The translations under genes were made by a program, and so were the position numbers. From Perkinsus olseni (Eukaryota), in contig JABANN010000109.1 of assembly GCA_013115125.1 (NCBI GenBank), forward strand, positions 1 to 64,000: a stretch of 64,000 nucleotides of DNA, read 5' to 3'. Positions 9,914 to 39,258 of this stretch are shown here, piece after piece; within the stretch, counting starts at the first letter, position 1; every line of letters begins with the position of its first letter. Below the pieces are notes generated by a model. It saw only the letters and a program-made list of their open reading frames with translations, made no database searches and had not been told where the DNA came from.

Positions 9914-12900
9914 ATGTCATATTACCAATCGCCATTCGGTCAGAATACACCAGCAGGGGCACCACCAGGATCATCGGTGCCTGTCCAGACCTCCCCCTTT
10001 CCAGGAGGGGCGCCCCAGATGGCTCCACCCCCCCAACCAGGCCAGCAGCAGCAGGGAAGTGGTACGCAGGCCGTCGAAGGGCTCCTCTGTAGTGCGGTGA
10101 CTAGCGGCGTTATCGTGGCGCATCTCCGGACGAGTGTCGGCGACAGTAGGAGATTTCATGGGGTTCAGGTCCCTACGGAGCGCCGCCTCCGATGGCTGGT
10201 GGCCAGCATCCAGTAGCACCCCCGATGGGTCAGCCTAGTGTCGGCCCTCCGCCCCTCCCAGGACAGCATATACCCGGGCCGCCACCTACATATGGTAGTA
10301 CTAAGGCAGTAGTGGATCAGAAGGGCTTTAAACTCTCTGTCTCAGCGTCCACGCCTTCTAACGCTGCCCCCGGGCAAGCCTTCGAGTATGTTGCGCCCGG
10401 ACCGACCGGTAGTCAGCCCCCACCAGCAGCAGCCCACGGCAGTATGGTTTCCCACGGTGGGATGGCGCCGGGTGGTGGACAGGTGCTAGAGGTAAGTGGC
10501 CTCCTATAAGGGCTCGTTCCGCCATGCTTCTCTTCAGACTGCCGAGTGCGATCCGGCTCTCAATGCCCGGCCTGAGTTCTTGCGGGGCAGCTTCAGTGTC
10601 ATGCCCGCCAGCGAGTCCACTCAAGTCAAGGCTAAGCTGCCCATAGGTGAGCTCTTCTTATCAAAAGGTCTAAGGTTCGATTCTCGGCCTCTGCAGGTTT
10701 TTTCTGCCAGCCTCTGGCCCCGACTGAAAGCCAGGTCCCCGTCGCCGACGTGATCCATCGTTGTGCTCGGTGTCGGACGTACTAATTTAGATGCTTGTAC
10801 CATCTTTCGCGCAAATCATCCTCAGGTACTTGAATCCGTTCGCCGCGTTGAACTTGCAGTTGCGGAGGTGGATATGTAACCTTTGCGGCCACTCGAACGG
10901 CATCGATGTCTACGAGCCCCCGCCGGAGATGACTTGCGGCACGGTGGACTTCATCGCCACCCAGGATTATATGGTACGGCTCCGACGCGTGTACCTCTGT
11001 ACGTAGGGCTTTGGTCGCAGGTTCGACCCCCGGTACCTCCTGTTTATGTCTTCTGTTTTGAAAAGAGTTATACAGCAATATCCACGGGGTTGGTGCGAGT
11101 TGCCGCTAACGCCATCAAGGATGCCCTCCCGAATCTTCCAGAACGGTCACAGATCGCTCTGATTACCTTCGATGACAAGAGTGTCAGCATCTTCGATTTG
11201 CAGGTAGGTCGCACTCGAATTTATAGGAAAATAAGGTCCTCGGGAAGTGCTTGAAGGGGCTGCAAGCAGCTGCTGAGTTGCTATTTTTACGGTATTATCT
11301 TCCTATTCCTCGCGACGACAATCGCCAAATAGAACATGATATTTCAGCGAGGTTGATAGCGGCCCTTCACCAATACTTGCTATCGTTACTATTGTTACGG
11401 TACCATCCTGCCCCGTCCCCTCTGCGATTCTCAAATTTATCAAGTAACACCCACATCGCGAACGCCTTCCTTTTCAGAGTGCAAATGGCACGGAGTATGT
11501 TATCTCCGATGTGGACGACCCCTTCCTACCCAAGCCGATGGACAGCCTCCTAGTTAACGTCTTCGATGACGCTGTTAATGGCACGATCAACAATGTCCTT
11601 GACAGCCTTGCCGAGATGAACCCACCCTCAGTGGCAAGTGACTGCTGTTGCATCACAGCTGCAGTCAAGTTGGCGAACTTGGTGATGCGTCATTTGGGTG
11701 GTAAACTTAGTATGTTCTCCTGTACCAAGCCGATCGAGCTTACCCCTGGCAAGCTGAAGAAGGAAGAGCGGGCGCCTGGTAGTAGTCCCCTCTGCCGTAC
11801 TGGCGAGTATTGATGATGCCTTTCTTCGTAGATGCGACCAGCATGGTGACTCCAGCGTCGTCGGTGTTCAAGGATATGACCTTGGACCTCATCGCCGTAC
11901 AAATCACAGTGGAGCTCTTCGTTGCAACGGACAACTTGCATATGGTAGTTGCGGGGTGTGGGGATCGAACCCGTGACCTCTGGACTACTGAATTATTTTG
12001 GTGCAGGATCTCGCGTCATTGGCCCCGTTGGCGAAGTACACGGGTGGCGACATGCGGTACTACCCGTTGTTCCGGGAGGCCTTCCGGGGCGAGCAACTGC
12101 GGCAGGATATCCAGCACATGCTCACACGTAAGATACGCTAACTTCTGAAACGGTCATAAAGATTCCTTCGCAGGCGAGACGGGCTTCGAGGCAGTTATGA
12201 AGTTCAGAGTTTCTCCTGGCTATGAACTCAAGAGCTACCATGGTCATCTGTTCCAGCGGTAAGGAGAAGGCGGTAGTCATCAGCATTGAAGAGCAAGTCT
12301 TGGTGTGGTAGGACTCGTAACTTGCTGGTGGCGCCTAACTGCACGGAGGATGAGACGTTCGGTTGCATCGTGGGCGTTAATAAGGATGTACTTGTTTAGT
12401 GTCAGCATCGACCTTGGAAGCTATCGTGTTTGTATCAGTTCTCTGGCCCGCAAGCACGCTCGGTGTGCATCCAAGCGGCATTGCTGTACACCTCCTCGGC
12501 TGGAGAGCGCCGTATTCGTGTTAATACGTCGCAGTTCCCGAAGTCCTTGGATGTAGGTTGTGGAGATTGCTACTGGTTGTGAGAGTATCTTTGATGGTAT
12601 CTTAGGTCGAACAAGTGATGGCCTCATGTGATGCCCAGGCGGCTGCCATCATTATGGGCAAGTATGCCATCAATGAGTCGCACAACGTGAGCGACGCACG
12701 AAAGTACGCCGAGGGGATGGAAGGGGCCTTCTAGACACTGTCATCAGGTACCTCCTGGACACGACCCAAGCTGCCCTCTCTGGTCCTAATGGTCGTCTAG
12801 AGAGCCTCGAGGCACTTCCAGGGTAGGTGGCTTCATCAAAGGTGTCGGTGAACACTCTTGGTTTACGCTACTGGCACGGACCGTGCACAACCTAATTTTT

Positions 12901-14539
12901 TTCATGATGTCTTCAGGTTGGTCCTCGGCCTGCTCAAGAGCGATGTCTTTAGTGCTGCTGGTGATATAACTCGGGACATGAGGGCGTATGAGGCCCATAG
13001 GTAATACTAGAAACAGTAGGAATAGTAGTGATAGCTCGCGCAATGGTATAAATTTGCCGTTGTTCGAGGCGCTCACGTTCTCTGATGGTTATAAGTGCTT
13101 GTGAACGGACTGACTAAGTAGCCGTACGGTGGTAGCTGCCGATGCACGGTGGCATGTGACGTTGACCACTGATCTCAGGTTCGAGTCTCTCCCAATCACT
13201 CTGGCAGATGCACTAGCTAGTCCAAGGATGTTCGCGGTAAGCATTCGCTTCGTCGTTTCGCCTCACCAGATGACCTTGTCTGCTACTACTATCATTCTGA
13301 CGGGCGTTACTGGTTGGTCCGGATAACGGCACGTTACTCAGGTGCATAACCTAGCTGGCACGCCTGCTGGCTACCCCATCAAGGGTGATGAGAGTGAACG
13401 GATCGAACTGCCAGAGGAGGTGAGCGATAGCCGAAGGAAGGCTTGAGAATGCGCAAGATGGAGCAAGATAGCAAGATTGTTCCTCATTACCCAAGTCGTG
13501 GATCACTTTTGTTAATGGGAGTTACCGTTCTCAGATTCATCCACTATCTGCACAGTCCATGTCCGCTGATGGAGCTTTCATTATCGAAGACGGAGAGAAC
13601 ATCTTCCTGTGGTAGTACTTGTGAATGCGTCCATACCACACCTTCCGCTTCTCATCGTGCGATTCCAACGTGGGTCCTTGTTAGGCTGGGGCAAGGCGTA
13701 TCAGGTCAATTTTTGAATGGAGTATTCGGTGTTGGATCTCTCGTGGAGATCTCCACTGAGCTAGGCTCCGGAGCCATCGTCAGCACCGGTGATGATAATT
13801 GTAATGGTTCTGGCGAGAGGCTCCCAGGTTGTGATCATGCTCGTTTGGCAGCTGTCCGACTAACGAACATAATAGACCAACTTAGAAGGGACCGTCGTCA
13901 CTACATGCCGCTGGTCATTCTACCGCAAGGACATCCACAGGAGAACAAGTGGGCTGCCTGACGGGCTCCCGTTCTAGTCCAGCGTGCTGCCCCTCAGGTT
14001 CTTCGAGAGGCTAGTAGCGGACAGAACAGCGGGCACCCAAATATCGTACGAAGAGTTCGTGCAGAGGCTAGGGGTACGTCGGGAAGGGAGGTGGTCTGAG
14101 CTTGTCTCCACTTCGTTGCTTCAGCTCCGCGGCCAGACTGTGCCGGTTGGAACTGCGGCTGCGATGGGAGGCTTCCCTCAGCAACAGATGAATAGCCCTC
14201 CGGCGATGCCTAGTCAGCAGCAGCATCCTCCATCCGCTGGTGGGAGGAACACACCAATGGCCGCCATGGGTACGTGCTTGGCGCTCCTGAGTTGTTGTTG
14301 TATTTTTCCTTGTCAGCTCCCCCCACACTTGCTGGTAAGACGGGCATGGCTCATGGAGGGCCTCCCCCGCCGCCACCCATGATGGCAGGCACCCAAGGGA
14401 GCAACTACGGCTATCAGCAACAGGTGAATAGTCGTACTTTGTAGACGACCTGGACGTCGTCTATCAGGCGCCGCCGCCTCCCCCGGCCATGGGAAACAAC
14501 TACTCTCATCCCCCTACCAACCAGGCCTATAGACAGTAG
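9914..14539 (+). CDS. SEC24: COPII cargo adaptor Sec24, paralogue 1 (many short introns)
   Basis: Pro-rich N-terminus; RCRT|YLNPF...WICNLC zinc finger; TVDFIATQDYM|VRPPVPPVYVF; vWA/trunk (ALITFD, DVDDPFLP, GGKL, YTGGD); ETGFEAVM; QAALLYTSSAGERRIRV; gelsolin-like end RLVADRT...SYEEF. Confidence 0.92.
11950..11983 (-). promoter_or_regulatory. tRNA 3'-end-like / B-box element inside a 62-nt Sec24-1 intron (11945-12006)
   Basis: Reverse strand reads CCAGAGGTC-ACGGG-TTCGATC-CCCAC-ACCCCGC-A: variable loop, T-loop, acceptor strand, discriminator; T-stem imperfect. Confidence 0.55.
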
Positions 14540-14968
14540 TGCGATTTATAGCTTACACGACTGTGGCTGAAGATTAGCCGAGCTTGCTGGTGCTGGTAGT
14601 AGTAGCAGTAGCTGATTGACGAGCATCACTGGGCGCCTGTACCCTTTACCAACGAAGAGTATACTTGTTCCTTCTCCTCCCGTCTTGGGTCCTGTTCTCT
14701 ATGCCTTCCGCAGTCACCACCTACCAGTGCACTGCCTTGCAGCAGTACTGTAGAATGGCGGCTCAGCATTGTTCTGGTTTCGGCGTGTCCGGCTGTTTTC
14801 TGAGTTCAGTGGTCCAGCGTAATCGAGGGTTGGGGCTAGCGCTCTCAACTGAATGGGGGGGGGGAGGGGTGCTTGTCGATATCACTGGGAGGAGCTCCAA
14901 CGGTGGGGTTGCTGTGATAGTACTATGCGGGAGTAACGTGGCAGTCGCTTTTCCGGGTTGACTTCGTC

Positions 14969-39093: not shown

Positions 39094-39180
39094 ATTTTAA
39101 AAATAACCTGCGGGGAAGAGTGTACTCACTATTGAATTCTATACGCTTTCTGTAGGCTCTATTTTGATGTAACAAGAAAG

Positions 39181-39258
39181 TGACGGGCCCAGGGATCGAA
39201 CCGGGGTGTCTCACCCCAGCGAGAGATAAGCGCGCTCGCCCAGTGTGAGCGAAGCGCT
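39181..39258 (-). ncRNA. tRNA-derived element (pseudo-tRNA / SINE head)
   Basis: D-arm GCTC-ACACTGGGC-GAGC (A box), T-arm CCCGG-TTCGATC-CCTGG (B box); acceptor stem does not pair and there is no canonical anticodon arm. Confidence 0.6.

Follow-up and report, generated by a model that had tools for sequence, protein, structure and literature searches.

Pieces of tRNA 3' ends in two minimal introns and upstream of a gene of Perkinsus olseni look like inert debris

A 64,000-nt stretch of DNA from Perkinsus olseni (contig JABANN010000109.1, positions 1 to 64,000; hereafter the window) contains three short pieces that read as the 3' end of a tRNA on the minus (-) strand. Two of them occupy the interior of small introns in a tandem pair of Sec24-type genes, and the third is intergenic, upstream of a gene with a TLC domain. 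A preliminary description of the window had taken them for copies of one dispersed tRNA-derived element, possibly an intron-seeding mini-SINE (short interspersed nuclear element). Our analysis points to another origin: the three sites probably arose independently, each as a non-functional remnant of a different tRNA gene or of its unfinished transcript, and they look like inert debris and not like an intron-making mobile element. The window stems from the nuclear genome of a Perkinsus species; in the exons of Sec24-type gene 1, identity was 93% to a protein of P. olseni (measured over the query exon) and 82-88% to P. marinus proteins.

All three sites are on the - strand. Site 1 (11949-11979, 22-mer at 11950-11971) comprises a variable loop, a T arm, a 7-nt acceptor strand and discriminator A; site 2 (16924-16949, 22-mer at 16924) comprises a T arm, the acceptor strand and discriminator A; and site 3 (39181-39258, 22-mer at 39181) comprises a T arm, the acceptor strand, the A and two hairpins. 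We confirmed the likeness among the 22-mers (19/22 between site 2 and each of the other two), as well as the reading on the - strand: in every site, a T stem, the loop TTCGATC, a T stem and 7 nt are followed by A. T-stem pairing is complete in site 2 (5/5) and partial in site 3 (4/5) and site 1 (3/5). The + strand carries GGGATCGAACC in all three sites (three exact matches in the window), corresponding on the - strand to a tRNA T loop and the pairs that close it. The B-box consensus GGTTCGANNCC is likewise exact in all three sites, as had been claimed.

Two features that first drew attention to the sites have no weight alone. An 11-mer occurring three times is commonplace, as 79 canonical 11-mers occur at least three times in the window, and a likeness of 19/22 is too, as one composition-preserving shuffle gave six direct and two inverted 22-mer pairs at >=19/22. 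Under a first-order Markov model, the pre-specified T-loop 11-mer is expected 0.037 times per window, and three occurrences were observed (P(>=3) = 8e-6). At <=1 mismatch, this 11-mer had five matches against a shuffle mean of 1.27, and none of 100 shuffles reached five. The looser B box GGTTCRANNCC occurred six times against 1.03 expected in the window. A generic scan of the window for T-arm hairpins gave six against 2.1 in shuffles (maximum 8), which was not significant. Separately, a T-arm-like 22-mer at 11013-11034 straddles the 3' splice site of the intron at 10974-11020 and runs into V-R-P-P codons. This 22-mer agrees at 21/22 with a foreign contig from the same genome, yet it is conserved as coding sequence in the paralogue, and the B-box match at 11020 is plainly coding (V-R-P-P). 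Such matches therefore also arise by chance, and this 22-mer serves as a useful chance control.

The assignment of the sites to tRNA 3' ends was borne out by called tRNA genes and by other contigs of the same genome. Metagenome contigs were scanned with a degenerate pattern covering sites 1 and 2, which returned 36 loci, and in 27 of these the pattern fell on the extreme 3' end of a tRNA gene called by ARAGORN, in antisense orientation. The exact 22-mer of site 2 was present 18 times in metagenome contigs, 16 times in the 3' ends of called tRNA-Thr(tgt) genes and twice without a called tRNA, at or near contig ends. That of site 1 was present four times, three of them inside called tRNA-Leu(taa) genes. 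Identity to the called tRNA genes was 26/26 for site 2 and 25/25 for site 1, with only 3-4 extra bases informative, as the loci were preselected by the 22-mer. The 22-mer of site 3 had no exact match in the prokaryote genome collection, the sole collection tested for this site. In DNA run X1, all five foreign contigs that touch a 10.5-kb stretch of the window do so via pieces of 20-25 nt, and T-arm-like sequence underlies six of the seven listed pieces. Four other contigs of the same genome match site 1 over 21-25 nt with one mismatch each, and positions 16931-16950 in site 2 are identical to another such contig. Two of the listed flanks show a T stem, then 7 nt and one base, then five T, which is the layout of a real RNA polymerase III (Pol III) tRNA gene.

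None of the three sites is a functional tRNA gene. ARAGORN found no tRNA gene in the window, and Rfam gave no tRNA match there at the gathering threshold. Site 2 had a weak 5'-truncated match to the tRNA clan (12.9 bits, E 0.93; gathering score 47), cmscan recovered only the T loop of site 1, and site 3 had no tRNA-clan match at E<=10, even on an 85-nt slice. No complementary 7-mer that could pair as the 5' acceptor strand was found upstream of any of the three sites. No Pol III terminator follows them: sites 1 and 2 run directly into the splice donor and the exon, and site 3 has a T-rich stretch only. A CCA end is absent as well, because the three bases preceding the 22-mers are AGT, CGA and AAG, not TGG. 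The pieces must therefore stem from a gene or from a CCA-less transcript.

Site 3 is the longest of the pieces, and the preliminary description had credited it with a D arm and an A box. A D-arm-like GCTC...GAGC hairpin can indeed be seen by eye, and a second hairpin of 6 bp stands at the place of a long variable arm; however, with no tRNA-clan match at E<=10 and no 5' acceptor strand, the attribution is weak. No 5' tRNA half for site 3 was found within the window. A Dada transposon beside this site was considered and is not supported, as neither a long reading frame nor a Pfam match was found there, nor a 5' tRNA half in the window. Around the same site, we observed that a C-box-like CTGATGATGA (39256-39265) directly adjoins it, and that 39198-39262 gave a weak match to a C/D-box small nucleolar RNA model on an 85-nt slice (14.1 bits, E 0.71; gathering score 70). 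The spacer beside site 3 contains a 28-nt direct repeat (39282-39309 and 39453-39480, 89% identical, spaced 171 nt), and the two 171-nt units align poorly outside this repeat.

The pieces come from different source tRNAs. Their flanks outside the 22-mer are unrelated and their acceptor strands differ, so that only the universal tRNA T loop and G/C-rich stems are common to them, which speaks against the dispersed tRNA-derived element that had been proposed. Between sites 1 and 2, T-stem pair 51-63 changes from G-C to A-T, and between sites 2 and 3, pair 49-65 changes from G-C to C-G. Because these double differences are compensatory, they follow the pattern of different functional tRNA genes and not that of drifting copies of one element. 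No target-site duplication or terminal repeat was found at the sites. We also rejected two other candidates. As for a hairpin or palindrome, both host introns fold with a stem-loop centred on the T loop, with z-scores of -2.03 (7/200 shuffles as good) and -1.11 (29/200), which are not significant, and the folds of both are inside the spread of other introns. G-rich 5' intron halves as the cause of the strand were too weak an effect, with 30% G against 25% C in 39 other introns.

The two intronic pieces lie in genuine introns, which are removed normally. Host intron 1 (11945-12006, + strand, 62 nt, GT..AG, phase 0) belongs to Sec24-type gene 1 (9914-14536, + strand; 22 introns mapped, with further introns in an unresolved stretch). 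It is skipped in contigs of the RNA-type runs X7, X16 and X8 and retained in DNA run X1, and protein P0001 could be mapped across it by spliced mapping (98 of 98). Host intron 2 (16918-16967, + strand, 50 nt, GT..AG, phase 0) belongs to gene 2, the tandem paralogue of gene 1 (15033-19882, + strand; 19 distinct introns mapped). Here the positions of the Sec23_trunk Pfam profile continue across the intron, the P. olseni orthologue P0004 maps spliced at 128 of 128, the homologue P0006 is continuous over the junction, and the read-through frame meets a stop; the RNA joint of this intron was not among the 15 joints listed of 55. The 22-mers begin at intron positions 6 and 7, and the pieces fill 50-70% of the two introns, in agreement with the earlier statement that they fill most of them. 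The size of both introns is ordinary: the median of the mapped introns in both genes was 54 nt (n = 41), 26 of the 41 were <=65 nt, and the longest reached 274 nt in spliced mapping. Introns of P. marinus are likewise reported to be mostly below 100 bp (PMC3101222).

Two further observations concern other introns of gene 1. In the intron at 13612-13684, 25 nt at 13629-13653 match, with one mismatch, a foreign contig that carries the site-2 T arm 2.3 kb away; this piece could not be matched to any tRNA part and may be another small repeat or tRNA-related intron piece. A contig of run X7 (331 nt, lower depth) spans 11174-11504 ungapped, including the whole 274-nt intron at 11204-11477; it may derive from RNA that had not been spliced, from antisense transcription or from carried-over DNA.

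Intron 1 predates its present filling and was not seeded by the tRNA-like piece. When the introns of both genes were mapped onto orthologous proteins and the proteins were aligned, intron 1 and the gene-2 intron at 17616-17661 (+ strand), which has no tRNA-like sequence, fell on the same aligned residue and in the same phase 0 (P0001 residue 444.0, delta 0.00), and the peptides flanking the two introns are clearly homologous. Only three exact positions are shared between the 22 introns of gene 1 and the 19 of gene 2 (P0001 residues 245.0, 444.0 and 512.67). As only 3 of the 19 gene-2 introns coincide with gene 1, a chance coincidence at intron 1 is not expected. Sharing codon and phase with a tRNA-free paralogue intron, intron 1 must have been present before the gene was duplicated, and it acquired its present filling afterwards. 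This result does away with the proposed intron-seeding mini-SINE for intron 1. Since intron 1 has an ordinary size of 62 nt, the piece replaced earlier sequence and was not added to it. Intron 2 is without a counterpart in gene 1, the nearest gene-1 intron being 7 residues away. The small number of shared positions implies that intron gain or loss since the Sec24 duplication was very heavy.

How the pieces may have arrived can be outlined as follows. Each keeps the 3' part of a tRNA, beginning exactly at the discriminator without CCA and broken off on the 5' side after 26 to ~78 nt, and each would have been pasted into DNA that tolerates change, likely as filler in break repair or as a short cDNA copy. 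Within the Sec24 genes, the only tolerant DNA would be the intron interior, where a piece could replace the middle of a minimal intron and leave the splice signals intact. The pieces have no capacity to make a tRNA, and the host introns are spliced as usual. Two routes fit this scheme: a transcript trimmed at its 3' end and still lacking CCA may have been copied, or part of a gene may have been captured in break repair. P. marinus has >500 copies of five tRNA types, together with Dada transposons in tRNA genes (PMC3706591), and the remains of spliced-leader copies within genes of P. marinus are a sign that reverse transcription takes place in the genus (PMC3101222).

Several observations weigh against debris of independent origin. 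Both intronic pieces are antisense to their host and start at position 6 or 7, and given some 20-25 tolerated starts, this agreement goes unexplained (n = 2). No site departs from the B-box consensus, whereas sites 1 and 3 have mispaired bases in the stem next to it, as selection on the B box would also predict. Part of this perfection is explained by ascertainment, as the sites were found via a perfect 11-mer; there was, moreover, no non-coding copy with one B-box mismatch in the window, both 1-mismatch matches being exonic. Three relics in 64 kb without an intact tRNA gene are denser than reported gene counts suggest, and the source tRNAs of this genome were seen in part only. Finally, protein and read-through searches found no orthologous intron from another species: a metagenome scan with Sec24 protein gave no relative, the read-through frame of intron 1 had no match, and that of intron 2 matched spliced proteins only. 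Neutrality of the pieces is what we infer. With n = 2-3, we treat the oddities of strand, offset and B box as leads and not as evidence of function.

One bolder idea would account for the strand and the offset, and we give it little credence: CCA-less tRNA 3' ends might be copied preferentially just behind the 5' splice site of minimal Perkinsus introns, always antisense. If so, such a rule would indicate a hot spot of break and repair or of target-primed copying that is linked to transcription or splicing. The hot spot would renew the interiors of old introns and might occasionally create introns such as intron 2, and the intact B boxes left behind could be landing sites for TFIIIC within genes.

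Among the alternatives to independent leftovers, decay in place survives best, and as an account of all three sites we consider it unlikely. It holds that complete tRNA genes, nested antisense in longer introns or standing upstream of the TLC-domain gene, died and were whittled down by deletions. Site 3 fits it best, being intergenic, up to ~78 nt long, and furnished with hairpins at the places of the D arm and the long variable arm; its T-rich trailer resembles the one behind a probable real tRNA gene elsewhere in this genome. The Sec24-type genes have introns as long as 274 nt, and tRNA genes are very numerous in the genus (PMC3706591). At the intronic sites, however, the tRNA 3' end adjoins the 5' splice-site hexamer in both cases, leaving no room for a terminator, deletions would need to have ended exactly at the discriminator twice, and the 26 nt of site 2 are undecayed although the remainder of the gene must have vanished. 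For site 3, in-place decay of a tRNA gene may be just as good an account.

Distinctly improbable, in our judgement, is a second alternative, that the pieces were kept as binding sites at which TFIIIC occupies the B box, with no transcription by Pol III, and thereby marks chromatin boundaries or modulates the host genes. It draws on GGTTCGATCCC, which is perfect in the three sites while neighbouring stem bases are mispaired in two, on the excess of GGTTCRANNCC noted above (6 against 1.03 expected), and on the position of site 3 ~90 nt upstream of a start codon, which recalls the setting of the extra-TFIIIC (ETC) sites of yeast. Against it stand the ascertainment through the 11-mer, the plainly coding nature of one extra B-box match, and the continuation of the conserved stretch into the acceptor strand, which TFIIIC does not need.

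That a mobile tRNA-derived element, in the manner of an introner or mini-SINE, inserts into genes, is spliced out and so makes new introns seems very improbable. The pieces fill 50-70% of two minimal introns in the same orientation and at a similar offset from the 5' splice site, intron 2 is without a paralogue counterpart, and introner-type elements are known from the related Amoebophrya (PMC7789003). Nevertheless, this explanation is refuted for intron 1, the position of which is common to the paralogue. The source tRNAs also differ, nothing is common outside the tRNA core, duplications and terminal repeats were not found, and the fold z-scores (-2.03 and -1.11) are not significant. In an assembly of 43 Mb, only five foreign contigs touch the 10.5-kb stretch, which speaks against a homogeneous family of high copy number. 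A chance resemblance selected by eye would suit the abundance in the window of 19/22 pairs and triple 11-mers, the coding fourth B-box match and the lack of a significant tRNA match in covariance models, but it is hardly credible, and very unlikely for sites 1 and 2, given P(>=3) = 8e-6 for the pre-specified 11-mer, the full 22-mers of these two sites as exact 3' ends of called tRNA genes elsewhere, and matches of 20-25 nt to contigs of the same genome.

Site 3 is oriented towards the TLC-domain gene at 38332-39094 (- strand; Pfam PF03798, E 1e-09), the start codon of which is ~90 nt downstream of the site on the - strand. The region that includes 38332-39094, 44529-45267, 47292-48074 (- strand) and 42523-44681 has a lower GC content (0.48) and carries two TLC-domain genes plus a possible third fragment. 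Between the TLC-domain genes, there are internal duplications of 45-267 nt with 75-88% identity. The T-arm hairpin scan of the window revealed no tRNA relic upstream of the other TLC-type genes.

If the three sites are debris, they carry a warning for annotation, in that B-box and T-arm matches in Perkinsus introns would be neither tRNA genes nor SINEs. They would also provide a datable marker for the speed at which intron interiors turn over at fixed intron positions. If the same rule of strand and offset applied to many introns, it would reveal a process by which tRNA copies are used to rewrite introns or to make new ones, in a lineage whose introns are very short and very dense. A literature search covering titles and abstract openings found no description of such a tRNA-copy intron process for Perkinsus.

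Among known systems, mammalian genomes offer one comparison: Schmitz and colleagues reportedly described, in 2004, tRNA pseudogene fragments and 'tailless' tRNA retropseudogenes in mammals. These are likewise short, truncated tRNA copies in non-coding DNA that are broken off within the tRNA and make no tRNA. The Perkinsus sites differ in keeping the 3' and not the 5' part, in having neither CCA nor a flanking duplication, and in that two of the copies occupy the interiors of minimal introns. A second comparison is with the ETC sites of budding yeast and the COC sites of fission yeast, ETC sites being defined by TFIIIC occupancy without Pol III. There, too, the B-box consensus does not belong to a working tRNA gene, and one of the Perkinsus copies lies near the start of a Pol II gene. 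The Perkinsus sites differ in that they are recognised by sequence and in that their similarity continues through the acceptor strand, as in a gene relic.

The Dada transposons of P. marinus belong to the same genus and account for the unusual abundance there of tRNA genes and of broken ones (PMC3706591). Insertion of such a transposon at the A box would leave a 5'-truncated tRNA flank resembling site 3. The Perkinsus sites described here differ in that no long transposase reading frame lies beside site 3 and that the 26-31 nt left at sites 1 and 2 end well short of the A box. Introners, as found in Amoebophrya, Micromonas and Aureococcus, form families with shared sequence, inverted and direct repeats, and new intron positions (PMC7789003). 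In these systems, too, a repeated sequence fills introns, in the case of Amoebophrya those of an alveolate parasite, whereas the Perkinsus pieces derive from different tRNAs, are free of repeats, and include one whose host intron is ancestral.

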